A stretch of 64,000 nt of DNA from a bacterium. Lineage in GTDB: Bacteria; Patescibacteriota; Minisyncoccia; UBA6257; UBA9933. The stretch covers positions 71,189 to 135,188 of the forward strand of contig JAUYBE010000006.1 in assembly GCA_030693235.1 (NCBI GenBank). Reading direction: 5' to 3'. Below, piece by piece: positions 15,184 to 41,355 of this stretch (positions within the stretch are counted from its first letter, which is position 1; every line of letters begins with the position of its first letter). The notes below the pieces were generated by a model. It saw only the letters and a list, made by a program, of their open reading frames with translations. It ran no database searches and was not told the DNA's origin. The position numbers were made by a program, and so were the translations under genes.

Positions 15184-16622
15184 AAACTCGCCTCCTTGTC
15201 GACATAAACCCCGTTAGAAAACCATATTTTTCTAACGGGGTAAAAAGGAGAAATAGCGTCAAACTCAATTTAAGTTTTAGTCCATGGATTACGATTCCTT
15301 TTAAAAATCTGCTTAGGGCGGTTTTTATTTTGCCGGTTGTTTTATTTTTTGTTTTCGGTTCGGTGACGGCTCCTGTTTCCGGCGGCGCCCGAGCCGCTCA
15401 AAACGAAGAAGAGAGAAAAGTTTTAGAATCAGAACTTGTTAAATACGAAAAAGAGATAGAACAGCACGAAGCCGCAATTGCTTTATTAAAAAAACAAGGC
15501 AAAACCCTGACATCAGAAATCAATCAGCTAAACAATAAAATCGCCAAACTTAATCTTCAAATAAAAGCCGTTAATTTGACTTTAAACAAATTAGACTCGG
15601 AGATTTCCAATACCCAGGGGCAGATAAGCCTGACAGAAAGCGAGATAGTTTTAAATAAAAAAAACCTTTCCCAATTGCTTCAGGTTTTATATGAGAATGA
15701 CAATCAGTCCTTAGTGGAAGTTCTTTTTAAAAATCCCCAGCTTTCGGATTTTTTCGGCGATATGAATAATATGTTGGCGGTTCAAGATAATCTAAGGGCA
15801 GTTATTGTCAAGGTTATTGAAGCGCGTCAAAAATTGGTTGACCAGAAAGAAGTTTTGGCTTTGGAGCGGGAGGACGCGGTTGCCTTAAAATCCTATCAAG
15901 ACGCTCAAAGAGCGAGTGTTCAAAAAACTCAATCGGATAAAAATAGTCTTTTAAAAGTTACCAAGGGTAAGGAATCGGAATATCAAAAGCTTTTAATTGA
16001 AACTAAAAAAACCGCCGCTGAAATCAGAAAACAAATCTTTAAATTTTTGGGCGGCGGTCAATTAGAATTTGGCGACGCTTATAATTTGGCGAAAATAGCC
16101 GAACAGGCGACTGGGGTTCGGGCTGCTTTGATTTTGGCGGTTTTAGACAGGGAATCGGCTTTGGGGAAAAATGTCGGACAATGCGATTATAAAACCGCCA
16201 CGCACCCGACGCGCGATATTCCGATTTTTCTTGAGATTATCAAAGAATTGGGATTTGAAAAAAAACTGGAAGATGGCTTGATTAAAGTGTCTTGCGCGAT
16301 CAGTTCCGATGGCGCCTACGGCGGAGCTATGGGTCCGGCGCAATTTATTCCCTCAACGTGGAATATTTATAAAGATAGGATTGCCAAATTAACCGGCAAC
16401 AATCCCGCTAATCCATGGAATAACGAAGACGCTTTTATGGGCACTGCTTTGTATCTTAAAGATTCCGGCGCCGGCGCCGGCGCTTCATTGGCCGACGAAA
16501 GAAAAGCCGCGGCCAAATATTACGCCGGTTCGCGTTGGAGTCGTTATCTTTCAACTTACGGTTCCCGGGTAGTCGCTCAGGCGCAGAAATTTGAAGAAGA
16601 CATAGCGATTCTAAGTTCGTAG
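15180..16622 (+). CDS. Coiled-coil protein with a C-terminal lytic transglycosylase (SLT/lysozyme-like) domain. The annotated N-terminus overlaps a palindromic element, so the true start may be downstream
   Basis: The C-terminal LAVLDRESALG...MGPAQFIPSTW is SLT-like, with a catalytic Glu in RES and an AQF.PSTW box. A long heptad-rich central region is present. A palindrome at 15207-15239 lies in the N-terminus. Confidence 0.65.
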   Translation: MKTRLLVDINPVRKPYFSNGVKRRNSVKLNLSFSPWITIPFKNLLRAVFILPVVLFFVFGSVTAPVSGGARAAQNEEERKVLESELVKYEKEIEQHEAAIALLKKQGKTLTSEINQLNNKIAKLNLQIKAVNLTLNKLDSEISNTQGQISLTESEIVLNKKNLSQLLQVLYENDNQSLVEVLFKNPQLSDFFGDMNNMLAVQDNLRAVIVKVIEARQKLVDQKEVLALEREDAVALKSYQDAQRASVQKTQSDKNSLLKVTKGKESEYQKLLIETKKTAAEIRKQIFKFLGGGQLEFGDAYNLAKIAEQATGVRAALILAVLDRESALGKNVGQCDYKTATHPTRDIPIFLEIIKELGFEKKLEDGLIKVSCAISSDGAYGGAMGPAQFIPSTWNIYKDRIAKLTGNNPANPWNNEDAFMGTALYLKDSGAGAGASLADERKAAAKYYAGSRWSRYLSTYGSRVVAQAQKFEEDIAILSS

Positions 16623-17272: not shown

Positions 17273-17355
17273 TAATCAGGTTTTAGTTTTTAGTTTTTAG
17301 GTTTTAGATAATTTTTTTCTAACACCTAACACCTAACACCTAACACCTAAAAACT

Positions 17356-17739
17356 TTGAGACTAATAGGCATCAACATTCCAGATAATAAAAGAATAGAA
17401 ATCGCTTTAACCTATGTGTACGGCATCGGCCGTTCTTTGGCGAATGACATTTTAAAAACGACAAAAATCGATTTCAACAAGCGGGCGAAAGATTTAAGTC
17501 CCGAAGAAATCAGCCGCCTTAAGCAGGAAATTGAAAAAAGTTATAAAATTGAAGGAGAATTGCGCCAGTCAATAAAACAAAACATCGTTCGTCTTAAAGA
17601 AATTCAATGCTATCGAGGAAGCAGGCATTTAAAAAAATTACCGATAAGAGGTCAGCGGACCAAAACCAATTCCCGGACCGTCAGAGGCAATGTCAGAAAA
17701 ACGGTCGGCAGCGGAAAGAGAAAAGCGGACTTGAAGTAA
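17356..17739 (+). CDS. rpsM: Ribosomal protein uS13 (TTG start)
   Basis: Sequence RLIGINIPDNKRIEIALTYVYGIGRSLANDIL... matches S13. Confidence 0.9.
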   Translation: MRLIGINIPDNKRIEIALTYVYGIGRSLANDILKTTKIDFNKRAKDLSPEEISRLKQEIEKSYKIEGELRQSIKQNIVRLKEIQCYRGSRHLKKLPIRGQRTKTNSRTVRGNVRKTVGSGKRKADLK

Positions 17740-17826
17740 GTTCATAAAGTTCATAAAGTTCATAAAGTTTGTAAAGTTTAACGAATTCAACTTTATAACT
17801 TCCAACTTTATAAACTTTTAACTAAA

Positions 17827-18399: not shown

Positions 18400-19089
18400 G
18401 TGATTCAAGATCTAAATAAATTAGAGCAGAAACTCGGAACACAATTTAAAAATAAGGATTTTCTCAAGGAGGCCATTACTCATCGTTCTTATCTTAACGA
18501 AAATCCTTCTTGGGGCGTGCCCCATAATGAGCGCTTAGAATTTTTAGGAGACGCGGTTTTGGAATTGGCGGTAACGGAAAATCTTTTTAACCAGTTTCCG
18601 GATTTTTCCGAAGGACAATTGACGAGTTTGCGGGCGGCTTTGGTGAATTATCAAACAATGGCTAATGCGGCTCGCAATATAGATCTAGGAAATTTTATTT
18701 TATTGTCGCGAGGCGAAGCCAAGGATATCGGCCGGGCCCGGGAAGTGATTTTGGCCAACGCGATGGAGGCGTTAATTGGCGCGGTTTATTTGGACGCCGG
18801 ATACGCAAAGACAAAAGAATTAGTGGAAAAATTCGTTATTAATCTTTATTTGGAGCAGATTATCAAGAACAATCTTTATAAAGATCCAAAAAGTCATCTT
18901 CAGGAAATTGCTCAGGAAAAATTGAAACTGACTCCGACTTATCAATTGCTTGAAGAATGGGGTCCGGATCATAAGAAAATATTTAAGATGGGAGTTTTTT
19001 TTGGAGATAAATTAATTGCCCAAGGCGAGGGCTATTCCAAACAAGAGGCGGAAATCGAAGCGGCGAGGAACGCTCTGAAGAGTTTTTAG
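18400..19089 (+). CDS. rnc: Ribonuclease III (GTG start)
   Basis: RNase III signature ERLEFLGDAVLEL and a C-terminal dsRBD (QE...P.Y......GP.H...F). Confidence 0.9.
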   Translation: MIQDLNKLEQKLGTQFKNKDFLKEAITHRSYLNENPSWGVPHNERLEFLGDAVLELAVTENLFNQFPDFSEGQLTSLRAALVNYQTMANAARNIDLGNFILLSRGEAKDIGRAREVILANAMEALIGAVYLDAGYAKTKELVEKFVINLYLEQIIKNNLYKDPKSHLQEIAQEKLKLTPTYQLLEEWGPDHKKIFKMGVFFGDKLIAQGEGYSKQEAEIEAARNALKSF

Positions 19090-19159
19090 GTTTTAGTTTT
19101 TAGGTTTTAGATGAATTTTTTTCTAACACCCAACACCCAACACCTGACACCTAAATATT

Positions 19160-21412
19160 TTGTTTTTAAAATCATTAGAACTCAACGGTTTTAAATCTTT
19201 TGCCCAAAAGACGATTTTGGATTTTCCGGCCGGCATTACGGCGATCGTTGGGCCGAACGGCAGCGGCAAGTCGAATATCATTGACGCGATTCGCTGGCTT
19301 TTTGGCGAAAGAGAAGCGAAGAATTTAAGAAGCGCCAAAGCCGAAGATTTGATTTTTGGCGGCACGCCTTCCAAACCGAGAGTGGCGATGGCTTCCGCCG
19401 GCCTTCATTTTAATAATAATTCCGGTTTTTTTCCGGTTGATTTTAAAGAAGTTTCCGTTGTTCGCCGCGTTGGCCGGGACGGTTTTTCGCAATATTTTCT
19501 TAATAAAGCCGAAGTAAAACTCAAAGAAATAATCGATTTTTTCAGTCGTTCACGGCTTGGGACGAAAGGATTGACGGTTATCAATCAAGGCGAGGCAGAT
19601 TTATTCGTCAGGGCTTCAACCGAAGAGCGCCGAATAATGATTGAAGAAATCTTGGGTCTTAGAGAATATCAGATTAAAAAAACCGAAGCCGAACGCAAAT
19701 TAAAAAACACTTTTATTAATTTGGAAAAAGTCAGGGCGATGGTTGAAGAAGTAATTCCCCGGCTTCGAACGCTTAAGCGCCAAACCAATAAATGGGAGAA
19801 AAGAGCGGCAGTTCAAAAAGAATTGAACGATTTTGAAAATGAATATTTTTCCAGAAAATTAAATGAAATCAAAAACAGCCGAAAAGAATTTGAGCAGTTG
19901 CTTATTTCTTTGGAAAATCAAATTAAGGAGAGAGAGGGGGAATTGAAAATTTTGGAATCGGAGCTGAAAAAAGCGGAATTTCAGCCGCAAGAGCGTCAGG
20001 AAATCAATCCTTCGGCGTTGCTCAGGGTTGAGAAGCAAAAATTATTAACGGAACGTTTTTATATTCAAAAAGAATTGGGGCGAATTGAAGCGAAATTGGA
20101 ATTTTTGGCAATGCCTAAAATGTCAGACAGACCGGTTTTTGAAAATGCCTCCCTGCGGGAGGTCTCCCGTAGGGAGAAAGATTTACTTGATCTTATTAAT
20201 GAAACCAAAAAAATTCTCGGCGATTGTTTAATATGTTCGGATTTTGAAGATTTAAAAAAGACAATCAATGAATTGGCCGCGAAAATAGATAAGTTTTTGA
20301 GTTCCAAAAAAGAACCGGTTCTTTTGTCTCATAAGCCAATCGAGTCGAGTTTAAGGGATTTGGAAAACAGCAAAAATAATCTGGAAGCGAAATTAAATAT
20401 TATTGAAGCGGAATTTAAAAAATTTGAAGAGCAAGAAACGAAAATTACCGTTGGTTTGGAAGAGTTTAACAAGAAATTTCAAAAAGCTTTTGAATTGGTG
20501 GAATCGAAAAGAAAAGAATTGAGAGAATTGGACGGGAATAAAAACAGGATTCTTTTTGAAGGGGAAAAATCGAATTTGAAACTTCAAGATTTGGAAAATC
20601 AATTAAGTCAGATTGGGAAAACGACCAACGATCTACGACCAACGACTAACGATCAACGACTTACTGAGGTTGAGCTTGCTGAAATGGAGCGGAAGATGTT
20701 TAAATTAAGAACGGAATTGGCAGCTATCGGCGAGATTGATGAATCTCTGATAAAAGAAGCCCAAGAAGTTGAGGCGCATTATAATTTTTTGACAAATCAA
20801 TCGCAGGATTTGGAAAAAGCCATTATTGATTTAAAAAATCTTATTAAAGAATTGAGCGAAAAAATTCATTTTGAATTTAATGCTTCGCTTAAGTCCATTA
20901 ATGACGAGTTTAATAAATTTTTTAAATTGATGTTTGGCGGCGGAAACGCGAAGCTCAAAATAAAAAAACAAAAATTAAAAATAAAAAATATTGAAGATAT
21001 TGAAGACGGCGCTATCACGCGTGATAGTATTGAAAATTCTGGCGATAATGAAAATAACGATGAAATTCCGGTGGGCGTTGATATTGATCTTAATTTGCCG
21101 AAAAAAAGAATTACCAGTTTGGAAATGCTTTCCGGCGGGGAAAAAAGTTTGGTTTCAATCGCCGCGCTTTTCGCTTTGATTTCCATCAGCCCGCCGCCAT
21201 TTTTGGTTTTAGACGAGATTGACGCGGCTTTGGATGAAAATAATTCCGGAAGGTTTGCCGATTTAATTAAGGAATTTTCCAAGAAGACGCAATTTATCGT
21301 GGTTACTCATAACCGAGCGGTAATGGAAGTCGCCAACGCGTTATATGGAGTAACAGTAGGAGAGGATGGAACATCAAAAATACTTTCATTAAAACTTGAC
21401 ACTAAAAACTAA
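19160..21412 (+). CDS. smc: SMC-family chromosome segregation ATPase (short form, TTG start), with in-frame repeat insertions
   Basis: N-terminal Walker A GPNGSGKSNIIDAIRWLFGE. C-terminal signature LSGGEKSLVSIA and Walker B LVLDEIDAALD. Long coiled coils. Confidence 0.85.
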   Translation: MFLKSLELNGFKSFAQKTILDFPAGITAIVGPNGSGKSNIIDAIRWLFGEREAKNLRSAKAEDLIFGGTPSKPRVAMASAGLHFNNNSGFFPVDFKEVSVVRRVGRDGFSQYFLNKAEVKLKEIIDFFSRSRLGTKGLTVINQGEADLFVRASTEERRIMIEEILGLREYQIKKTEAERKLKNTFINLEKVRAMVEEVIPRLRTLKRQTNKWEKRAAVQKELNDFENEYFSRKLNEIKNSRKEFEQLLISLENQIKEREGELKILESELKKAEFQPQERQEINPSALLRVEKQKLLTERFYIQKELGRIEAKLEFLAMPKMSDRPVFENASLREVSRREKDLLDLINETKKILGDCLICSDFEDLKKTINELAAKIDKFLSSKKEPVLLSHKPIESSLRDLENSKNNLEAKLNIIEAEFKKFEEQETKITVGLEEFNKKFQKAFELVESKRKELRELDGNKNRILFEGEKSNLKLQDLENQLSQIGKTTNDLRPTTNDQRLTEVELAEMERKMFKLRTELAAIGEIDESLIKEAQEVEAHYNFLTNQSQDLEKAIIDLKNLIKELSEKIHFEFNASLKSINDEFNKFFKLMFGGGNAKLKIKKQKLKIKNIEDIEDGAITRDSIENSGDNENNDEIPVGVDIDLNLPKKRITSLEMLSGGEKSLVSIAALFALISISPPPFLVLDEIDAALDENNSGRFADLIKEFSKKTQFIVVTHNRAVMEVANALYGVTVGEDGTSKILSLKLDTKN

Positions 21413-22126: not shown

Positions 22127-22861
22127 ATGAAGTTTGATATCATCACAATTTTCCCTGATATTTTTTCCGCCAAGGGCGGATCTTATTTAAACGAGTCAAT
22201 TTTAAAGCGCGCGCGGGCCAAAAAATTAATTCAAATTAAAATCCATAATTTACGGGATTTTGCCGTTGGCAGCAGACTTATGCAGACTGAACGCGGACTT
22301 ACGCAGAAAAATGGATATCGTAAAGTAGATGATAAACCTTACGGTGGGGGACCGGGAATGGTGCTCAAACTTGAACCGCTCGTAAAAGCGGTTTCAAGTT
22401 TGAAGTCAAAAGTCAAAAGTCAAAGGTCAAAGGTTATAATATTCACGCCGGCGGGAAAACAGTTTGACAATAAAATTGCAGGGCAGTTGGCAAAAAATTA
22501 CAATAATTTAATTTTAATTTGCGGCCGCTATGAAGGCATTGACGCTCGCTTAATGCCGGTTCTTAAAACTTTAAAACTTTCAACTTTAGAACTTTCTGTT
22601 GGTCCCTATGTTTTAACCGGAGGTGAATTGGCGTCAATGGTTTTAATAGACGCGGTTTCGCGGCAAATTCCCGGCGTTCTTGGCAAAGAAGAATCGCTTG
22701 AGGAAAAACGTTTCGGTATTGGCGCGCCGGCTTATACCCGGCCGGAAACGTTTGTTTATGGGAATAAGAAATATAAAGTCCCGAAAGTTTTACTTTCCGG
22801 CAATCATAAAAAAATAGAAGATTGGAGAAGGAAGAAATCCCTTGAGATTCTTACAAGTTAG
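22127..22861 (+). CDS. trmD: tRNA (guanine37-N1)-methyltransferase TrmD, with in-frame repeat insertions
   Basis: Sequence FDIITIFPDIF...ICGRYEGIDARL...LTGGELASMVLIDAVSR matches TrmD. Extra segments RLMQTERGLTQKNG and KSKVKSQRSKV coincide with DNA repeats. Confidence 0.85.
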   Translation: MKFDIITIFPDIFSAKGGSYLNESILKRARAKKLIQIKIHNLRDFAVGSRLMQTERGLTQKNGYRKVDDKPYGGGPGMVLKLEPLVKAVSSLKSKVKSQRSKVIIFTPAGKQFDNKIAGQLAKNYNNLILICGRYEGIDARLMPVLKTLKLSTLELSVGPYVLTGGELASMVLIDAVSRQIPGVLGKEESLEEKRFGIGAPAYTRPETFVYGNKKYKVPKVLLSGNHKKIEDWRRKKSLEILTS

Positions 22862-31626: not shown

Positions 31627-31770
31627 CAAGAAAAATACATAGATTATTATAAATAATAATCCGCGGACAACAGGCATTTAAGACCTGTCGAGGATGGCGA
31701 TTTTTGTCTGCGGCATTCTGCCGTATTTTTGTTACTAAAACCTAACACCTAAAACCTATAACCTAACTTT

Positions 31771-32825: not shown

Positions 32826-32900
32826 GGGCGCTTAGTTCAGTGGCAGAACGTTCGATTCACATTCGAAAGGTCGGAAGTTCGATCCTTCCAGCGCCCACCA
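32826..32900 (+). tRNA. tRNA-Val (CAC), CCA encoded
   Basis: Manual fold: acceptor gggcgct/agcgccc, anticodon stem ttcga/tcgaa, loop ttCACat. Confidence 0.75.
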
Positions 32901-32905
32901 AAAAA

Positions 32906-32932
32906 TCATCCCGTACGGGGTGATTTTTTGGT
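32906..32932 (+). terminator. Intrinsic terminator
   Basis: Hairpin atcatcccg-tac-ggggtgat followed by TTTTTT. Confidence 0.6.
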
Positions 32933-33071
32933 GTGTGAATAATCTGTTGATAATTCCAGCCAAAGATTTTTAAAAATCCGCTTAAATAAAGGTTTTTTTA
33001 AATCTTTATCGGTTGTAAAATCGGTTTTTAGGTTATTGACTCAAATTAAATTGTGGAGCAGAATGTAATGG

Positions 33072-33560: not shown

Positions 33561-33653
33561 GTTAAAAGTTCGTAAAGTTCGTAAAGTTTATAAAGTCCGT
33601 AAAATTTAAAAAATTCAACTTTATAACTTTCAACTTTATAACTTTACAAACTG

Positions 33654-34613
33654 ATGCATAAGCCTGTTCTTTTAAAAGAAGTTATTGAAATTTTAAATCC
33701 ACAGTCCGGAGAATTTTTTATTGATGGAACATTGGGCAGTGGCGGGCACGCGGTTGAAATTATTAAAAAAATTTCGCCGAACGGAATATTTTTGGGAGTT
33801 GATTGGGATAAGGATGTAATAGAGAATTTCAAATCAAACCTAAAACCTAAAAGCTATAACCTAAAAGCTATTAGGTTGGTTCACGGCAATTACGCGGATT
33901 TGCCGGAAATTTTGTCTGCCTACGGCAGATCTCCCGAAGGGAGAAAAAAATACAAATTGCCGAAAGCCGACGGATTGCTCATTGATTTGGGATTTTCTTC
34001 CGAGCAGTTGGAGAAATCGGGCAGGGGATTCAGTTTTTTAAGAGATGAACCGCTGGATATGAGATATGACACGAAAGTTGAAAGTTTAACCGCGGCGGAA
34101 GCGGTAAACAGTTTCAACGAAAAAGATTTGGCGGATATTTTTTGGAAATACGGCGAAGAAAGATTTTCCCGAAGAATCGCCAAAAAGATTGTTGAAGAAA
34201 GGAAGAAAAAAAGAATTTTAATAACATTTGATTTAGTGGAAGTAATCAAAAGAGCTGTACCGAAAAGTTATGAAAAAGGCAGAATTCACCCCGCCACTCG
34301 CGTTTTTCAAGCCCTGCGGATTTATGTCAATGACGAATTGGGCAATTTGGAAAAATTATTAAAAAATCTGGAGAAAATTATAAAACCTAAAGGTCGAGTC
34401 GCTATAATTTCATTTCATTCATTGGAAGATCGCTTGGTTAAAAACTATTTTCGGGAGATGGCGAAACCTGCCCGCATTGCTACGCAAAGCGTTGCAGGCG
34501 GGAAAGGAATGGCGGAAATTTTAACCAAGAAACCGATAACGGCGACGCTGGAGGAAATTAGAAGCAATCCAAGGTCGCGATCGGCGAAAATGAGAGCAAT
34601 AAAACTTCTATGA
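33654..34613 (+). CDS. rsmH: 16S rRNA (cytosine1402-N4)-methyltransferase RsmH (MraW), with three in-frame repeat insertions
   Basis: Sequence HKPVLLKEVIE...FIDGTLGSGGHA...DLGFSSEQL...ISFHSLEDRLVK matches RsmH. Confidence 0.9.
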   Translation: MHKPVLLKEVIEILNPQSGEFFIDGTLGSGGHAVEIIKKISPNGIFLGVDWDKDVIENFKSNLKPKSYNLKAIRLVHGNYADLPEILSAYGRSPEGRKKYKLPKADGLLIDLGFSSEQLEKSGRGFSFLRDEPLDMRYDTKVESLTAAEAVNSFNEKDLADIFWKYGEERFSRRIAKKIVEERKKKRILITFDLVEVIKRAVPKSYEKGRIHPATRVFQALRIYVNDELGNLEKLLKNLEKIIKPKGRVAIISFHSLEDRLVKNYFREMAKPARIATQSVAGGKGMAEILTKKPITATLEEIRSNPRSRSAKMRAIKLL

Positions 34614-34936: not shown

Positions 34937-36547
34937 ATGAAATGGAGAATTACAAGTTTATTTTTTCTTTTTGGAATTTTATATTTATCTTTAATTTTTA
35001 ACATTTATCGTCTTCAAATTGAAAAAGGAGATTTTTATTTAGCAAGAGCGGAGTTTTTAAGGCGATTAAGCGGCGTTTTTCAAACGCCGAGAGGCGCTAT
35101 CTATCTTACCGACAGGAATAATAATTCTAATATTGCCGCTTTCAATAAAGATTATCCGGTAATTTACGCCGTGCCCAAGGAAATTCAGGAAAATAACAAT
35201 AGCAATAACAATAACAATGACAATAACAATACGCGGAATTACGCGGAAAAATTAAGTACGATTCTTAATGTTTCGGTTGAAGAGCTTGAAAAAAAATTCA
35301 ACAAACCCAACGATGAGTATGAGATTTTAATTCAAAAAGCCGGCGTCGAACAGGTTGAAAAAGTGAAAAATCTCAATCTAAAAGGAATATATATAGACAG
35401 CCAGCTTTTGCGTTTTTATCCTTTCGGCGGTTTGGCTTCTCATTTGTTGGGATTCACCGCGAACGGCGATGAAGGCGGAGGCCGTTACGGCGCGGAGCTC
35501 TATTTTGATAAATCGCTTAATAATGGAGAAAATCTGGTTTTAACCATTGACCGCGTTATTCAAGGACAGGCAGAGGAAATTTTAAAAAATCTCATTGACC
35601 GTTATCAGGCGGTTGGCGGAACGGTTATTGTTCAGGAACCGAAAACCGGAAAAATTTTAGCGATGGGAAGTTTTCCGAATTTTGACCCCAATGATTATTC
35701 AAAATTTAAAGTGGAAAATTTTCTTAATCCGGCGGTTCAGTTGGTTTACGAGCCGGGTTCGGTTTTTAAAGTAATCACTATGGCGGCCGGCATAGACAGC
35801 GGAAAAATTACTCCGGAAACGACTTACATCGACACCGGCTCGGTTACTTTTAACGGCATGACGATAAAAAATTGGGATTTGAAAGCTCATGGCCAGCAGA
35901 CAATGACCGGCGTGATTGAACAGTCTATCAATACCGGCGCGGTTTTTGCCCAGCGGAAAATCGGCCAGGATATTTTTTATAATTATTTGATAAAATTCGG
36001 TTTTAACGAGTCGACAAACATTGTTTTGCCCGGCGAGGTTAGAGGAAAAATTAATAATCTTAAACAAGGGAAGGATATTGATTTTGCCACTGCTTCTTTC
36101 GGCCAAGGCGTTTCGGTAACGCCGATTGAATTAATCAGCGCGATTTCCGCCATTGCCAACGACGGCGTTCTGATGAAACCGATTATTTCAGGAAGTGAAA
36201 AATCGCAAGTTGTCAGACGGGTAATTTCCTCTGAAACTTCCAAAAAAGTCGCTCAAATGATGGTTTCCGCGGTTGATAAAAACAAAATCGCGGTAATTTC
36301 CAATTATTCAATCGCCGGAAAAACCGGAACCGCTTTTGTGCCGGATTTCGGGAAAAACGGTTATACTGATGAAGTGATTAATACTTATATGGGTTTTGCT
36401 CCGGCTTTTGATCCGAAATTCGTGATTTTGATAAAATTAGATAAACCAAAGGGCAGTCCCTTGGCTGGCCAGACAGTGGTGCCGGCTTTCCGCGAACTGG
36501 CGCAATTTATTTTAAACTACTATAATATAGCGCCGGATAGATTATAA
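34937..36547 (+). CDS. ftsI: Penicillin-binding protein / peptidoglycan D,D-transpeptidase FtsI
   Basis: N-terminal TM. Transpeptidase motifs SVFK (SxxK), SNY? and KTGT. dcw cluster context. Confidence 0.8.
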   Translation: MKWRITSLFFLFGILYLSLIFNIYRLQIEKGDFYLARAEFLRRLSGVFQTPRGAIYLTDRNNNSNIAAFNKDYPVIYAVPKEIQENNNSNNNNNDNNNTRNYAEKLSTILNVSVEELEKKFNKPNDEYEILIQKAGVEQVEKVKNLNLKGIYIDSQLLRFYPFGGLASHLLGFTANGDEGGGRYGAELYFDKSLNNGENLVLTIDRVIQGQAEEILKNLIDRYQAVGGTVIVQEPKTGKILAMGSFPNFDPNDYSKFKVENFLNPAVQLVYEPGSVFKVITMAAGIDSGKITPETTYIDTGSVTFNGMTIKNWDLKAHGQQTMTGVIEQSINTGAVFAQRKIGQDIFYNYLIKFGFNESTNIVLPGEVRGKINNLKQGKDIDFATASFGQGVSVTPIELISAISAIANDGVLMKPIISGSEKSQVVRRVISSETSKKVAQMMVSAVDKNKIAVISNYSIAGKTGTAFVPDFGKNGYTDEVINTYMGFAPAFDPKFVILIKLDKPKGSPLAGQTVVPAFRELAQFILNYYNIAPDRL

Positions 36548-36647
36548 TCATTATTTTACGGTCATTGCGAGGAGCGAAGCGACGAAGCAATCTCTATGAA
36601 TCAATAAGATTGCTTCACTGCGTTCGCAATGACAAGGCCACAGCATT

Positions 36648-38015
36648 ATGAAACATCTTTTATTGAAAATTTTACAATTAATTTTAAAGCAATTAGCTAA
36701 GCTGACGATTTGGCGTTTTCAGCCGCGGGTTATCGCCATTACTGGCAGTGTCGGGAAAACTTCCGCCAAAGAGGCGATTTACGCGGTTTTATCCGCCTCG
36801 GGCGGAAAAAATCATCGTCGGGTGAGAAAATCCGAGGGCAACTTAAATAATGAATTGGGTGTGCCGCTTGCCATAATCGGAGAATGGAAAGAAGAGGAAT
36901 TAAAATTGGTTAGTCGCGATACGCCGTCCGGCAAGAAAAAAATTAGAAAATTATTATTTTGGCTAAAAGTAATTTTTTATGGCTTAGCTCAGTCCCTTTT
37001 TCTTAAAAAATCCGTTTATCCTGAAATTTTAATATTAGAATACGCGGCAGACCGGCCAGGAGATATTAAAGAGCTTTTGGAAATCGCCAAGCCCTATATC
37101 GGAATTATTACAGCTATTGGCGAAATACCCGTACATATAGAATTTTTCAGCGGTCCGGAAGCGATAGTTCGAGAAAAGGCGAGAGTCGTTGAAAATTTAT
37201 CGGCAAATGGTTTTGCCGTATTGAATTTTGACAACGAAGCAATAATAAATATGAAAGAACGAACCCGCGCCAAAATTATCACTTTCGGTTTTAATGAAGG
37301 CGCGGATGTGAAAATCAGCGGTTTTGATTATGCGCAGACCAACGCAAACAGTCAGCGTGAGTCCGCGTTAAGTCCGCGTGAGTCAGCGTGGCGCGAAGCG
37401 CCAATGGGCGTTTCTTTTAAGATTGAATACGCCGGCAGTTTTGTGCCGGTAGTTTTAAAGAATGTTTTCGGGAAAGCTCAGGCTTATGCCGCTGCGGTTG
37501 CCGCCTGCGTTGGTTTGATTTTTGATTTAAATTTGGTGGAAATTTCCGAGGCGCTTTCAATAAATTACCGGCCGGCCAAAGGAAGAATGAATTTATTAAA
37601 AGGAATCAAGGATACTTATATTATCAACGACGCCTACAACGCTTCGCCGATTTCAATGGAAGAAGCTTTAACAACGCTCGGCGATTTGTCGGCTGAAAGA
37701 AAAATCGCGGTTCTGGGAGATATGCTGGAATTGGGAAAATATTCGGTTGAAGCTCACGAATCAATCGGCCGATTAGCCGGGAAAATAGTTGATGTTTTAA
37801 TTACCGTCGGTCCGCGGGCGAAATTTATCGCCGAATCAGCGGAAGCCGTTGGGCTGGACAAAAACAAAATTTTGAGTTTTGATACGACGACGGAAGCTTG
37901 TCGGGCGGTTCAGGACTTGATTAAAAAAGGCGATTTGATTTTAATAAAAGCGTCAAGAGCAATAGGATTGGAAGAGATAGTGGAGGAAATTAAAGAAATT
38001 GCCGCTTTCGTCTAG
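36648..38015 (+). CDS. murF: Mur ligase family protein, probably UDP-MurNAc-tripeptide--D-Ala-D-Ala ligase MurF, with an in-frame repeat insertion
   Basis: P-loop AITGSVGKTSAKE. Mur ligase middle and C-domains present. dcw cluster context. Confidence 0.7.
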   Translation: MKHLLLKILQLILKQLAKLTIWRFQPRVIAITGSVGKTSAKEAIYAVLSASGGKNHRRVRKSEGNLNNELGVPLAIIGEWKEEELKLVSRDTPSGKKKIRKLLFWLKVIFYGLAQSLFLKKSVYPEILILEYAADRPGDIKELLEIAKPYIGIITAIGEIPVHIEFFSGPEAIVREKARVVENLSANGFAVLNFDNEAIINMKERTRAKIITFGFNEGADVKISGFDYAQTNANSQRESALSPRESAWREAPMGVSFKIEYAGSFVPVVLKNVFGKAQAYAAAVAACVGLIFDLNLVEISEALSINYRPAKGRMNLLKGIKDTYIINDAYNASPISMEEALTTLGDLSAERKIAVLGDMLELGKYSVEAHESIGRLAGKIVDVLITVGPRAKFIAESAEAVGLDKNKILSFDTTTEACRAVQDLIKKGDLILIKASRAIGLEEIVEEIKEIAAFV

Positions 38016-38040
38016 TGGTTAGGACACCCGCCAAAATTTA
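38014..38040 (+). pseudogene. 5' fragment of tRNA-Glu (acceptor 5' strand, D-arm, start of anticodon stem). It overlaps the murF stop, immediately upstream of the intact tRNA-Glu
   Basis: gctttcgtctagtggttaggacacccgcc is near-identical to nt 6-35 of the downstream tRNA-Glu and has no T-arm. Confidence 0.6.
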
Positions 38041-38041
38041 T

Positions 38042-38113
38042 GGCGCATTCGTCTAGTGGTTAGGACGCGTGATTCTCAATCACGCAACAGGGGTTCGATT
38101 CCCCTATGCGCTA
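38042..38113 (+). tRNA. tRNA-Glu (CTC)
   Basis: Manual fold: U8C9. D-arm gtc-tagtggttag-gac typical of Glu. Anticodon stem gcgtga/tcacgc with loop ttCTCaa. G1-U72 wobble. Confidence 0.7.
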
Positions 38114-38210
38114 CAAAAAATTTAGGCGGGGAGCACGGGTTCTCTGCCCGCTTTCGCCTTCGGCGAAGCCGATGGCAGGCGGGGATTCCCATAAGCGGCA
38201 CCATAAATAA

Positions 38211-38585
38211 ATGTTATTAGCTAATATTATAAAAGATAAATATCTCAGAGTGGTGGGCGTTCTCAGTGTTTTGGTCGTATTTTTGGCGGGAGCGGTTTTT
38301 TATTCTCAGCCAGAGGCTGATCCGCTTCAGGCGGAAAAACTCGGGCAAACGACAACGCCTTTAATTATTCGTTTTGAGGCCGATAAAGATATTGATTTTT
38401 TGGCCGGCCGGATGGAAGTTCTCGGAATTTTATTGTCCGCTTTGACAATAATTTTAATTAATTTCTTTTTAGCTAATTTTCTTTATCGTCGCGAAAGATT
38501 TCTTTCTTATATTTTCAGTTTTGCCAGCTTGGTTATCGCGGTATTGATTTTAATAATAATATCTGTTATTGTTTCTGTAAATTGA
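38211..38585 (+). CDS. Hypothetical membrane protein
   Basis: ORF track entry. Three hydrophobic helices. Confidence 0.4.
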   Translation: MLLANIIKDKYLRVVGVLSVLVVFLAGAVFYSQPEADPLQAEKLGQTTTPLIIRFEADKDIDFLAGRMEVLGILLSALTIILINFFLANFLYRRERFLSYIFSFASLVIAVLILIIISVIVSVN

Positions 38586-38902: not shown

Positions 38903-39579
38903 TTTCTGCGCTCTAATGCAGAAGTAAGTGTTTCTTCGTCGGCGAATTCTATTTCTCCGCCGGTCGGAATGCCGCGTCCCAAGCGAGTGATTTTTTTGGC
39001 GAAAGGCGAAAGTTCTTTGGCAATCACTGAAAAATTGAGATCGCCGTATGTGGTGGGGTTGAAAGCGATAATAATTTCTTCGGCTTGCCCGAATTCTTTC
39101 TTAATCCGATTTTTAAGATGGTTCAGCCGAAGTTTCTGGCTGCTTTCCAAAAATCCGGTTTTGGCGAATTCGCCCAAAATCAAATAATGGCCTTTAAACT
39201 TCTTGGTCCGTTCCAAAGAAATCAAATCAGTTTCTTTTTCAATGATGGCAATGATATCTTTTTGACGGTTTTGGTCTAAACAAATATTACAAAGATTAAT
39301 TCCGCGTTTATCCGCGTTCAGTCTGCGCGAGTCTGCGTCGTATACGAAAAAACATTCAGAACAGATTTTTAAATATTTCAAATCAGAAATCGCTTTGGCG
39401 GTTTCTTCAATTCGGTTCCGACCGCTGTTGATTAATTTAAAAGCCAAGCGAGTCGCTTGACGAATGCCGATGCCCGGCAAAGTTGAGAAAATTTGAATAA
39501 ATGTTTTAATTGGATCAGGTAGCATATAATAATAATAATGAATATTCGCAATTTTGTCATCATTGCGCACATAGACCAC
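38899..39579 (-). CDS. recR: Recombination protein RecR, with an in-frame repeat insertion
   Basis: HhH sequence LPGIGIRQATRLAF. C4 zinc finger C..C...C. Toprim domain with a DxD-like pattern. Confidence 0.85.
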   Translation of the reverse strand: MVYVRNDDKIANIHYYYYMLPDPIKTFIQIFSTLPGIGIRQATRLAFKLINSGRNRIEETAKAISDLKYLKICSECFFVYDADSRRLNADKRGINLCNICLDQNRQKDIIAIIEKETDLISLERTKKFKGHYLILGEFAKTGFLESSQKLRLNHLKNRIKKEFGQAEEIIIAFNPTTYGDLNFSVIAKELSPFAKKITRLGRGIPTGGEIEFADEETLTSALERRN

Positions 39580-41355
39580 GGGAAATCGACTTTAGCCGAC
39601 CGGTTTTTGGAATTAACCGGTGCCGTTGAATTGCGTCAGATGAAAGCGCAATATCTCGACCAATTGGAGCTTGAAAGAGAGCGGGGGATTACGATAAAAA
39701 TGGCGCCTGTGCGAATGACCTATACCCTAAACGCTATACCCTATACCCTAAACTTAATTGATACGCCAGGACATAGTGATTTTTCTTACGAAGTTTCTCG
39801 GGCTTTGGCCGCGGTTGAGGGCGCGATTTTATTGGTGGACGCCGTTCAGGGAGTTCAGGCGCAAACTTTGGCTAATTTGGAAAACGCCAAAAAAGTCGGT
39901 TTGACCGTTATCGGCGCGGTTAATAAAATCGACGTCGCTTCTCCCGAGCAGATTAAAAATTCAATAAACGAATTGACGCGGCTTTTGAATGTCGGTCCCG
40001 AAGAAATTTTTAAAATTTCCGGCAAAACCGGAGAAGGTGTGGAGGAATTATTAGAAGCAATAATAAGAGAAATTCCTCCACCGAAATTTCCGCGTGAGTC
40101 CGCGTTAAGTCCGCGAGATTTCGCGATCAATGCGCGAGCATTGATATTTGATTCCCTCTACGACGAGCATAAAGGCGTTATCGCTTTTGTTCGGGTTTTT
40201 AACGGCGAATATAAAGCCGGCGACGAAACAAAACTTGTCGTTGCCAATGAAAAATTCAAAATCAAAGAAGTCGGCGTTTTTTCTCCGCAATTAAAATCAA
40301 CGGATAAATTATCAGCCGGCGAAATCGGTTATATCGCCACTGGCATTAAAAATCCAGATAAATTAAAAATCGGCGACACTGTTGGAGAAAGCGCTTTGCT
40401 TGGCTATCAAGAACCCAAGTCGGTGGTTTTCGTTTCTCTTTATCCGGACGAAGAATCGCAGTACGATGATTTAAAAATCGGCCTTCAAAAATTGAAACTT
40501 AATGACTCCAGTTTGACTTTTTCTCCGGACACCAACGAAGTTTTGGGCAGGGGATTTAAATGCGGTTTTTTGGGAAAACTTCATTTTGAAATTGCCGCCG
40601 AAAGATTGGAAAGGGAATTTAACATAAAAACAGTTTCAACGTTTCCGTCTGTCGCTTATAAAATAATCACGAAACAAGGAGAAAGAATTATCGAAAACGC
40701 CGATGAATTGCCAGCCGATTATTTGGAAATTTTTCAGCCGATGATAAAAATTGAAATTATCGCGCCGTTGAAATATTTAAGCAATGTTTTGCGTCTTAAA
40801 GAATCTTTCAAAATGGAAAATATCAAAACCGAAAATTTGCCTGCCCGCATTGCTACGCAAAGCGTTGCGGGCGGGGAAGACAAAATTTTAATAAGATTGA
40901 ATATGCCGCTTTCAAGTTTGATCGCCGATTTTGACGACCGGCTGAAATCAATTTCCGAAGGAATGGTTTCTTTCAGTTATGAACTGGGCGATTATCAAAA
41001 AGCCGAATTGGAAAAAGTGGAAATTTTGGTCGCCGGTCTTCCCGTGCCCGGTCTGACCAGGCTTATTTATAAAGATGAATTAGAAATAAAGCCCCGGCAA
41101 TTGCTCCAGAAACTAAAAGAATTTTTGCCGCGCCAGCAATTTGTTCAAGCTCTTCAAGCGGTGGCCGGAAGCAAAATTATCGCTCGCGAAACGATTCCGG
41201 CGATGAAAAAAGACGTGACGGGCTATTTATACGGCGGCGACCGGACCAGAAAAATGAAGCTTTGGCAGAAACAAAAGAAAGGCAAGAAAAAACTGTTGCA
41301 AAGGACTTCCGGAGTCAAAATCCCTGTAAAAATCTTCAAGGATTTGTTAAAGTAA
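39538..41355 (+). CDS. lepA: Elongation factor 4 (LepA), with at least three in-frame repeat insertions
   Basis: Sequence IRNFVIIAHIDHGKSTLADR...DTPGHSDF...NKID plus the LepA C-terminal domain. Confidence 0.9.
   Translation: MNIRNFVIIAHIDHGKSTLADRFLELTGAVELRQMKAQYLDQLELERERGITIKMAPVRMTYTLNAIPYTLNLIDTPGHSDFSYEVSRALAAVEGAILLVDAVQGVQAQTLANLENAKKVGLTVIGAVNKIDVASPEQIKNSINELTRLLNVGPEEIFKISGKTGEGVEELLEAIIREIPPPKFPRESALSPRDFAINARALIFDSLYDEHKGVIAFVRVFNGEYKAGDETKLVVANEKFKIKEVGVFSPQLKSTDKLSAGEIGYIATGIKNPDKLKIGDTVGESALLGYQEPKSVVFVSLYPDEESQYDDLKIGLQKLKLNDSSLTFSPDTNEVLGRGFKCGFLGKLHFEIAAERLEREFNIKTVSTFPSVAYKIITKQGERIIENADELPADYLEIFQPMIKIEIIAPLKYLSNVLRLKESFKMENIKTENLPARIATQSVAGGEDKILIRLNMPLSSLIADFDDRLKSISEGMVSFSYELGDYQKAELEKVEILVAGLPVPGLTRLIYKDELEIKPRQLLQKLKEFLPRQQFVQALQAVAGSKIIARETIPAMKKDVTGYLYGGDRTRKMKLWQKQKKGKKKLLQRTSGVKIPVKIFKDLLK

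Follow-up and report, generated by a model that had tools for sequence, protein, structure and literature searches.

The closest known system to the element described here is that of the Ssn nucleases and their SRM repeats. Ssn proteins, monomeric GIY-YIG nucleases with a single domain and a length of about 94 aa, act on single-stranded DNA (ssDNA) only and cut it beside their cognate hairpin, the repeat NTS/SRM (Chenal et al., Nat Commun 2025, PMC11893778). This repeat (formerly part of dRS3) is a hairpin of 20–50 nt that flanks the nuclease gene, on both sides in 42% of cases for SRM, and is dispersed in hundreds of copies, of which, for NTS, only 2% are genic; Rickettsia is among the SRM-rich genera (PMC11893778). 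The layout of repeat, gene and repeat, resembling that of an insertion sequence (IS), and the analogy with REP/RAYT were noted by the authors, mobility being hypothesised and not shown; Patescibacteria and in-frame insertions are not mentioned in that report (PMC11893778). Our subject is a 36-nt hairpin, CCTGCCCGCATTGCTACGCAAAGCGTTGC(G/A)GGCGGG, found within lepA and within rsmH in a stretch of 64 kb (the window) of contig JAUYBE010000006.1, from a Wolfebacteria-like bacterium of the Candidate Phyla Radiation (CPR; Patescibacteriota).

After Ssn/SRM, the nearest comparisons are with REP/RAYT and with the Rickettsia palindromic elements (RPE). The latter, the subject of Ogata et al. 2000, 'Selfish DNA in protein-coding genes of Rickettsia', reportedly lie in-frame in unrelated, often essential genes and are translated as extra surface peptides. 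The present element likewise lies in-frame within unrelated protein-coding genes of reduced-genome organisms; but RPE measure about 100–150 bp, encode 30–50 aa and are largely confined to one genus, whereas this element has 36 nt, encodes 12 aa, is identical in CPR bacteria of many classes and can be assigned a partner gene. We know of no established mechanism for RPE mobility, and the naming of a candidate enzyme makes that type of question testable in vitro. With REP/BIME-RAYT and IS200/IS605-PATE the element has in common that short, imperfect, dispersed hairpins without target-site duplication (TSD) flank the gene of an enzyme that recognises them as ssDNA, or for this element would do so, and that gene-less derivatives outnumber the gene-bearing unit. 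It differs from both in having no 5' GTAG or guide, no conserved target tetranucleotide and no strand bias, and from REP/RAYT in that the partner is a GIY-YIG hydrolase, not an HUH tyrosine transposase, REPs being moreover extragenic by definition. Other small, non-autonomous palindromic elements are the classical miniature inverted-repeat transposable elements (MITEs) and the GC clusters and double-hairpin elements of fungal mitochondria. Classical MITEs, such as the Correia elements of Neisseria, have terminal inverted repeats and the TSD of a DDE transposase, unlike the present element, which has no TSD; the GC clusters of yeast, which also occur in-frame, in var1, are organellar, and we know of no enzyme identified for them. 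With Ssn/SRM the element shares both a single-domain GIY-YIG partner and a hairpin repeat in the flanks of its gene, and it is best filed as an Ssn/SRM-like, nuclease-associated hairpin repeat that resembles RPE in its life within genes. The phenomenon of selfish DNA in coding sequence, known from Rickettsia, is thereby extended to the CPR.

The element at its sites in lepA and rsmH

The 36-nt sequence occurs exactly twice in the window, both times on the + strand, 1302 nt from the ATG of lepA and 813 nt from that of rsmH, a gene of the mraZ-rsmH-ftsL-ftsI-murF cluster. Both copies are in codon phase 0 and translate to the same 12 residues, PARIATQSVAGG (P-ARIATQSVAGG), their lone mismatch, at element position 30, being a silent change between the alanine codons GCG and GCA. 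In dinucleotide-preserving shuffles of the sequence not even one 36-mer match arose (0/100), and the RNA fold of the lepA copy reaches -28.3 kcal/mol (z -4.2). The sequence-only reading of this DNA had claimed that lepA and rsmH carry one and the same 36-nt element, with one mismatch and in the same phase, and the window search and codon offsets confirm this. Its limits for the lepA copy, 40839–40876, were one nucleotide out at each end (Table 1), and its 11-residue insert, ARIATQSVAGG, lacked the leading proline. It had also called the two host proteins essential, which is overstated because LepA and RsmH are dispensable in E. coli; they are better termed conserved housekeeping proteins.

Empty sites corresponding to both copies are found in the closest relative, contig_112 of ENA ERZ1286166 (L120 in our labelling of loci), which is syntenic with the window from mraZ to lepA at about 88% nucleotide identity. 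Global alignment of the two gives a clean presence or absence of 36 nt at each site, the uninterrupted sequences in L120 being gcgaaa^aaagga in rsmH and aaattt(g)^(g)gaagac in lepA; at neither empty site was a TSD found beyond a 1-nt alignment ambiguity. At the protein level, all 12 of the 12 close LepA homologues, two of them as much as 92% and 96% identical, are without precisely these 12 residues, so that the junction reads TENL-PARIATQSVAGG-EDKILI in the window and TENL-EEKILI in the homologues. No exact-protein match to the window LepA was found. Solved structures of LepA and RsmH, on which the sequence-only reading had proposed to map the insert, show alignment gaps exactly at the inserted peptide. 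For RsmH this holds for the proteins of T. maritima and T. thermophilus, the E. coli protein having an unrelated, longer loop there, and the insert thus falls in a loop of species-variable length. In an AlphaFold model of LepA the insert comes between two predicted β-strands of domain V (427–434 and 449–457), with predicted local distance difference test (pLDDT) values below 50 at residues 437–446. The model was built on an alignment of 13 sequences, has low confidence (mean pLDDT 58) and was used only for secondary structure around the insert, whose predicted position fits a surface hairpin loop.

The conclusion is supported that the 36-nt element was inserted recently and precisely, without TSD, into both genes. 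That these are recent insertions of mobile DNA and not a product of vertical evolution, as the sequence-only reading had held, is upheld by the empty sites in L120, by the homologues of 92–96% identity without the insert, by the gaps against solved structures, and by the recurrence of the element in other genomes, where it has at least 119 settings unrelated to one another. 'Transposition', the term it used, is a reasonable word for the insertions, while the insertion chemistry that the term implies is a matter of deduction.

An artefact of assembly or sequencing, through chimeric reads or adapter-like sequence, has to be considered in so far as identical short sequences in many metagenome-assembled genomes (MAGs) could come from contaminants, and the window is a single assembly. 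We regard it as scarcely credible. The element stands mid-contig in over 100 assemblies, some of them long-read, whose projects and platforms are independent of one another, which effectively answers the objection of an assembly chimera; and it has natural variants with compensatory changes, nested copies and a specific gene association.

A dispersed hairpin family and a small GIY-YIG nuclease

An exact 25-nt core of the element is present in at least 119 stretches of a species-representative genome collection, and the counts of copies given below (119–125), as well as conservation, flanks and reading frames, were taken among the matches listed. These include Saccharibacteria, Kazan and Dojkabacteria; the Microgenomates lineages Gottesman-, Woese-, Roizman-, Levy- and Blackburnbacteria; and the Parcubacteria lineages Moran-, Nealson-, Staskawicz-, Portnoy-, Buchanan- and Komeilibacteria. 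Several copies per genome are common, with at least four in a Kazan MAG and at least eight in the MAG CAZKRU. The latter, of 52% GC, carries on a copy-bearing contig an HtpG whose best matches, at 75% identity, are from Verrucomicrobiota; its label holds on this check, it is a genuine non-CPR host, and the element has therefore crossed phylum boundaries. The CAZKRU copies (L006, L043, L047, L058, L066, L081, L097 and L111) are embedded in a larger repeat of 140–330 nt, which also holds a 39-nt variant hairpin (CCTGCCCGCAATGCCTACGGCATAGCCGTTGCAGGCGGG). The labels 'Gammaproteobacteria', 'Pseudomonadales' and 'archaeon' of some third-party-annotation (TPA) MAGs are doubted, one 'archaeon' contig sharing its flank with a contig of Blackburnbacteria. 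The 25-mer is absent from the viral contigs of IMG/VR, and there is therefore no evidence for a phage vector. No description of the element was found in the searchable literature, including searches with the literal DNA and peptide strings.

The borders of the element are sharp. In 121 aligned copies, with the consensus CCTGCCCGCATTGCTACGCAAAGCGTTGCAGGCGGG, conservation is 93–100% over exactly 36 positions, save for positions 3 (85%) and 30 (81%); just outside, composition returns to background and the flanks are unrelated. What defines the family is its pair of GC-rich arms, CCTGCCCGC / GCAGGCGGG, the canonical interior being ATTGCTACGCAAAGCGTT, and both RNA and DNA folds are far more stable than those of shuffles. 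Positions 3 and 30 covary: among 119 distinct copies the pair is T-A in 94, A-T in eight, C-G in three, T.G in eight and a non-pair in six (Fisher p 1.6e-9). Interior variants keep the arms and show compensatory changes, for example from TTGC/GCAA to ATGC/GCAT, and from this base-pair covariation it follows that the hairpin is under selection. The window has two canonical copies and one variant member in its 64 kb; the variant sits within an 87-nt insertion (38116–38202), not found in L120, that adjoins the tRNA gene at 38042–38113.

All-against-all clustering of 1,961 open reading frames (ORFs) from hairpin-bearing loci gave as the top recurrent neighbour a small GIY-YIG protein of 78–87 aa, in which the GIY-YIG catalytic domain, PF01541, is the sole significant Pfam domain (E 5e-14 to 5e-19). 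In all ten members of the subfamily (10/10) the canonical hairpin, in either orientation, lies 8–41 nt upstream of the start codon. As a control for ascertainment, 80 metagenome loci were fetched by alignment to the nuclease (A2) alone: in 27 a hairpin of the arms family precedes the gene by 8–52 nt, where the background density of the same loci predicts 0.07 (p 1e-61), and nine more have one downstream only, stray copies elsewhere numbering only three in the remaining flank of about 200 kb. Some three quarters of the 24 closest nuclease homologues have an upstream hairpin, and among the other loci many have hairpins of this arm family that have diverged further. In three loci only (L127, L129 and L155) does the hairpin flank the gene on both sides.

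In other loci the gene lies inside a hairpin or between inverted repeats (L160, L149, L156, L004 and the window). In L160 the two half-arms enclose the gene as CCCGCCCGCCTCGCCTGAGC-gene-GCTCAACTCGCGATGGCGGGCAGG, and L149 and L156 are similar; overall, exact inverted repeats of 11 nt or more, a length never attained in shuffles, enclose 8–10% of the nuclease genes. The hairpin is identical at 36/36 positions where the adjacent nucleases are only 58–72% identical in amino acids, and variation in the hairpin interior is weakly correlated with that in the nuclease (Mantel r 0.18, 11/2000 permutations).

The window contains a homologue of this nuclease, 52% identical to the hairpin-upstream subfamily, in an IS-like cassette that has a DEDD-type exonuclease gene on one side and an RNase H gene on the other. 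The inverted repeats of the cassette are 14–18 nt long, with 14 nt 100% complementary, where shuffles never reach 11 nt. In a gene-less copy of the cassette ends the left arm, identical over its 18 nt, is separated by 39 nt from the right arm, and the copy would form a long ssDNA hairpin (DNA fold -23.2 kcal/mol, z -8.7); cassette and gene-less copy together present the autonomous and non-autonomous pattern of a transposable element. Palindromes of the type '(A)CCCCGTTAGAAA...TTTCTAACGGGG(T)' occur in the window at 15208–15241, 32896–32933 and, inside pgk, 53089–53137. The same motif, CCCCGT(T/G)(A/G)..., lies about 20 nt upstream of the genes of a different GIY-YIG subgroup (L153, L164, L173, L174, L178, L189 and L196), and in L149, L156 and L171 it brackets the gene as inverted repeats, from which it would seem that several nuclease/hairpin pairs coexist in CPR genomes.

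As regards the relation to Ssn, the locus of gonococcal ssnA was recovered, with seven perfect NTS repeats around the gene for a protein of 94 aa; it came from NZ_CP119140.1 and NZ_CP119142.1, complete Neisseria gonorrhoeae chromosomes of 2.17 Mb filed in PLSDB as 'plasmids' and almost unannotated. A profile of nine CPR nucleases aligns with this SsnA at an hhalign probability of 97.9% and 42% identity, and with B. subtilis YazA (UPF0213) at 98.3% and likewise 42%, SsnA and YazA being only 26% identical to each other. As judged by these alignments, the nuclease appears equally close to SsnA and to UPF0213/YazA, and membership of the Ssn clade (CDD cd10448) is not yet demonstrated. The nearest solved structures in the PDB are single-domain UPF0213 proteins, with weak matches, and NCBIfam has no family for the nuclease. 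The SRM motif HGTCWYN(0-2)YYVSBRHN(0-5)WNVSBRGN(0-2)RNCYNB matches none of 125 copies of the element (±15 nt, both strands), whereas the NTS positive control and all seven gonococcal NTS repeats match. The hairpin also differs from SRM in having no conserved non-palindromic 5' flank and in lying mostly on one side of the gene, upstream. For the manipulation of ssDNA, a 36-nt site with a predicted ssDNA nuclease of about 80 aa might be added to the tools that Ssn offers.

CPR genomes are about 90% coding, and the finding that 34 of 124 copies (about 27%) lie well inside long ORFs, the remainder being apparently intergenic, therefore amounts to strong depletion from genes; even so, this share, which is translated, contrasts with the 2% of NTS that are genic. 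The hosts are unrelated housekeeping proteins: aminoacyl-tRNA synthetases (aaRS) of the Ile and Leu types, NrdD, FtsH, DnaG, IF-2, FtsZ, a penicillin-binding-protein (PBP) transpeptidase, TsaD and ribosomal protein S1, ten proteins having been covered by the Pfam check. CPR aaRS, FtsZ, DnaG, IF-2 and LepA thus carry 12-aa inserts that are no phylogenetic signal, and that can mislead alignments, trees and structure prediction.

The element amounts to 12 codons and is free of stops in five of its six frames. Among the 34 genic copies, 22 are read in the PARIATQSVAGG frame, six in a frame of the reverse strand giving PACNALRSNAGR, and none in the stop-containing frame (p 2e-8). Orientation is otherwise unbiased with respect to gene direction and transcription (67:57), and the frame bias therefore points to selection on the translated peptide; it is best explained by survival of the most innocuous one. 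Copies landing in genes would persist only if harmless, those that survive would yield the small, hydrophilic PARIATQSVAGG in surface loops, and the peptide would be a translated passenger and not a functional module.

The same bias argues against removal of the element from mRNA. If the 36 nt were excised from RNA, as a mini-intron or a processed hairpin, the proteins would be unaltered; the hairpin would indeed be very stable in mRNA, and CPR rRNA genes are known for intervening sequences (PMC11270868). Excision would, however, leave the frame unconstrained, and the canonical length would not need to be a multiple of three, as it is. No Rfam family covers the element, and a 36-nt hairpin has no known self-splicing core. 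We consider such excision very improbable.

Mobility of the hairpin and its possible mechanism

Further evidence for mobility comes from the positions that copies occupy. Five of them (L018, L040, L050, L091 and L113) are nested at the exact centre (18|18) of a copy in reverse orientation, and others interrupt tandem heptamer arrays without duplication and with the phase of the repeat kept. The apex of an existing hairpin is thus a demonstrable insertion target. Precise insertions, apex nesting and cross-phylum identity are directly visible here, in distinction to the Ssn/SRM report; sites found both filled and empty, the nesting of copies, and forms with and without the gene together constitute direct sequence-level evidence for the mobility of hairpin repeats associated with small GIY-YIG nucleases, which earlier work on Ssn could only hypothesise (PMC11893778).

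The explanation that we favour, with a probability of roughly 0.7, is that the element is a short, non-autonomous, mobile hairpin and the cognate repeat of the single-domain GIY-YIG nucleases of about 80–87 aa. By analogy with Ssn/NTS and REP/RAYT, the nuclease would recognise the folded hairpin in ssDNA and nick at or beside it, and new insertions would follow from such nicks. As a guess, an excised hairpin oligonucleotide might be re-inserted by host ligation or repair.

Several observations weigh against this explanation. The link from nuclease to insertion is drawn from sequence association, and strand joining is not a known activity of GIY-YIG enzymes, which are DNA hydrolases, so that the insertion step is left without a known catalyst. 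The flanks yielded no conserved target motif, the commonest 3-mers accounting for only 9/119 and only T being depleted at -1, and orientation with respect to GC skew is unbiased (62:62), so that an ssDNA or lagging-strand mechanism is without direct support. Within the window the canonical hairpin adjoins no nuclease gene, the one homologue there having an inverted repeat of another kind, and in the examined flanks of hairpin-bearing Verrucomicrobiota loci the nuclease gene was not seen. The Mantel signal could reflect simple co-inheritance. Finally, covariation supports the pairing CCTGC/GCAGG, but the minimum-energy ssDNA fold of the consensus pairs CCCGC/GCGGG; the GC-rich arms are internally repetitive, so that several pairing registers are possible.

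A single imperfect hairpin of REP-like size, with no TSD and with no terminal inverted repeats beyond it, is typical of ssDNA 'peel and paste' elements, and the element might accordingly be a REP- or PATE-like hairpin moved by an HUH (Y1) transposase of the IS200/IS605/RAYT type, its association with the GIY-YIG gene being incidental. This we think quite improbable: no transposase-like family was recognised by eye among the 25 largest clusters of the 1,961 neighbouring ORFs, although no Pfam Y1_Tnp scan of all neighbours was made, Pfam checks having covered the GIY-YIG cluster and the ten genic host proteins only; and there is neither a conserved 5' target of 4–5 nt, nor a GTAG or guide tetranucleotide at the 5' foot, nor a replication-strand bias. 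A palindromic target was sought in the flanks too, where complementarity at ±1 was only 38%.

A different division of roles, in which mobility and homing belong to the nuclease gene and the hairpin serves it as a site for landing or recognition, kept for a host function such as transformation control or as an uptake signal and spread by recombination of incoming DNA, is in our view unlikely, though there is more to be said for it. CPR bacteria are thought to depend on DNA uptake; the hairpin is far more conserved than the adjacent nuclease, suggesting functional constraint; and the gene sometimes lies in the hairpin apex, as a homing gene would. SsnA/NTS, moreover, modulates transformation in Neisseria (PMC11893778). 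Against this, the lepA and rsmH events consist of the 36 nt alone, accompanied neither by homology in the flanks nor by co-transferred DNA; copies lie within other copies and within tandem repeats; and no host benefit can plausibly be attached to the insertions in coding loops. The density of copies, at two to three per 64 kb, is low, DNA uptake sequences occurring at about one per kb. Density was likewise the reason for dropping a DNA uptake sequence as an identity for the element, a possibility considered, on general knowledge, with those of a CRISPR repeat (no arrays), an integron attC site (size) and a bulge-helix-bulge (BHB) intron (structure).

If the favoured explanation, that of a mobile hairpin cognate to the nuclease, is carried further, a nuclease of about 80 aa and a hairpin might together constitute a minimal, hitherto unrecognised class of DNA transposon, with an autonomous unit of about 300 bp made up of half-hairpin, gene and half-hairpin. 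The 36-nt 'empty' form would leave its site and enter a new one as a folded single strand, favour exposed loops such as hairpin apices, rely on host ligation or repair and not on a transposase, spread horizontally between phyla (from Patescibacteria to Verrucomicrobiota) and remodel surface loops of CPR core proteins. We advance this tentatively, as a possibility that is rather doubtful as a whole; if true, it would answer the question, left open in the Ssn paper, of how SRM repeats multiply.

Two hairpins had seemed to lie in functional tRNA genes (L060 and L083), a reading that was rejected when ARAGORN and the sequence placed them in truncated pseudo-copies of the 5' half. In both (L060 267–345, tRNA-Cys; L083 6433–6361, - strand, tRNA-Thr) the hairpin is in the D-loop of the pseudo-half, just upstream of an intact tRNA. 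The window likewise has a truncated 5'-half pseudo-copy, at 38005–38041, upstream of its tRNA gene at 38042–38113; relative to L120 it represents a 39-nt duplication that overlaps the murF stop codon.

Other insertions and repeats in this lineage

Table 1. Positions of the element, its host genes, the nuclease cassette and other insertions (window coordinates unless stated)
Feature	Positions	Strand	Remarks
Host gene rsmH (16S rRNA m4C1402 methyltransferase)	33654–34613	+	319 aa; E 4e-58 to MraW/RsmH structures
Element copy 2, in rsmH	34467–34502	+	consensus A at position 30
Host gene lepA (EF4)	39538–41355	+	605 aa; E 7e-152 to solved EF4 structures
Element copy 1, in lepA	40840–40875	+	G at position 30; LepA residues 435–446
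Sequence spanning insert junction			...TENLPARIATQSVAGGEDK...
Variant family member	38143–38183	+	intergenic; arms TCTGCCCGC ... GCAGGCGGG, different 23-nt interior
GIY-YIG nuclease gene	54555–54818	+	87 aa from second ATG; ORF runs from 54534; hidden Markov model (HMM) E 3.5e-30
IS-like cassette	54538–54848		inverted repeats CCAGTAATTCAACTTCAA (54538–54555) and TTGAAGTTGAATTAACTG (54831–54848) around nuclease gene
Gene-less (MITE-like) copy of cassette ends	55688–55764		77 nt; 840 nt downstream of cassette
Cognate nuclease of L077			protein sequence MFYTYVLKSQKDNELYIGW...
Second-family insertion	22285–22311
Second-family insertion	35225–35251		ftsI
Second-family insertion	37328–37390		murF
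Second-family insertion	39299–39328	-	recR
Second-family insertion	40089–40125		lepA
Second-family insertions	53460–53497, 53751–53837		pgk
Tandem-unit arrays	17281–17358, 17729–17822, 19085–19162, 31728–31766, 33566–33650
Tandem-unit array in L120	9006–9058		L120 coordinates
GC-rich hairpin-like in-frame insertion vs L120	33914–33935		22 nt in rsmH
GC-rich hairpin-like in-frame insertion vs L120	36791–36805		15 nt in murF (ATCCGCCTCGGGCGG)
GC-rich hairpin-like in-frame insertion vs L120	38306–38335		30 nt in ORF 38211–38585 (TCAGCCAGAGGCTGATCCGCTTCAGGCGGA)

The genes of the window lineage are peppered with several families of mini-insertions (Table 1). A second family, unrelated to the 36-nt element, consists of periodic units of about 10 nt (GTCCGCGTNA, complement ACGCGGA) and is translated in-frame, giving the peptides RESALSPRESA in MurF and PRESALSPRDFA (RESALSPRDFA) in LepA; several of these insertions are absent from L120 or shorter there. 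LepA homologues of other genomes have similar inserts (NADTDADKR etc.) at other positions.

Intergenic DNA is affected as well. A palindromic insertion of 87 nt at 36557–36643 (TACGGTCATTGCGAGGAGCGAAGCGACGAAGCAATC...GATTGCTTCACTGCGTTCGCAATGAC) is absent from L120, and a related sequence of the type 'CGAAGCAATC' is translated in pgk (LSLRGVPQSGTTKQS) and in the RNase H-like ORF at 54852–55346. Intergenic arrays of tandem 7–9-nt units (TTTTAGG.../CTAACAC..., AAGTTCATA...) recur, and differ between the window and L120; in other genomes copies of the hairpin are sometimes inserted inside such arrays.

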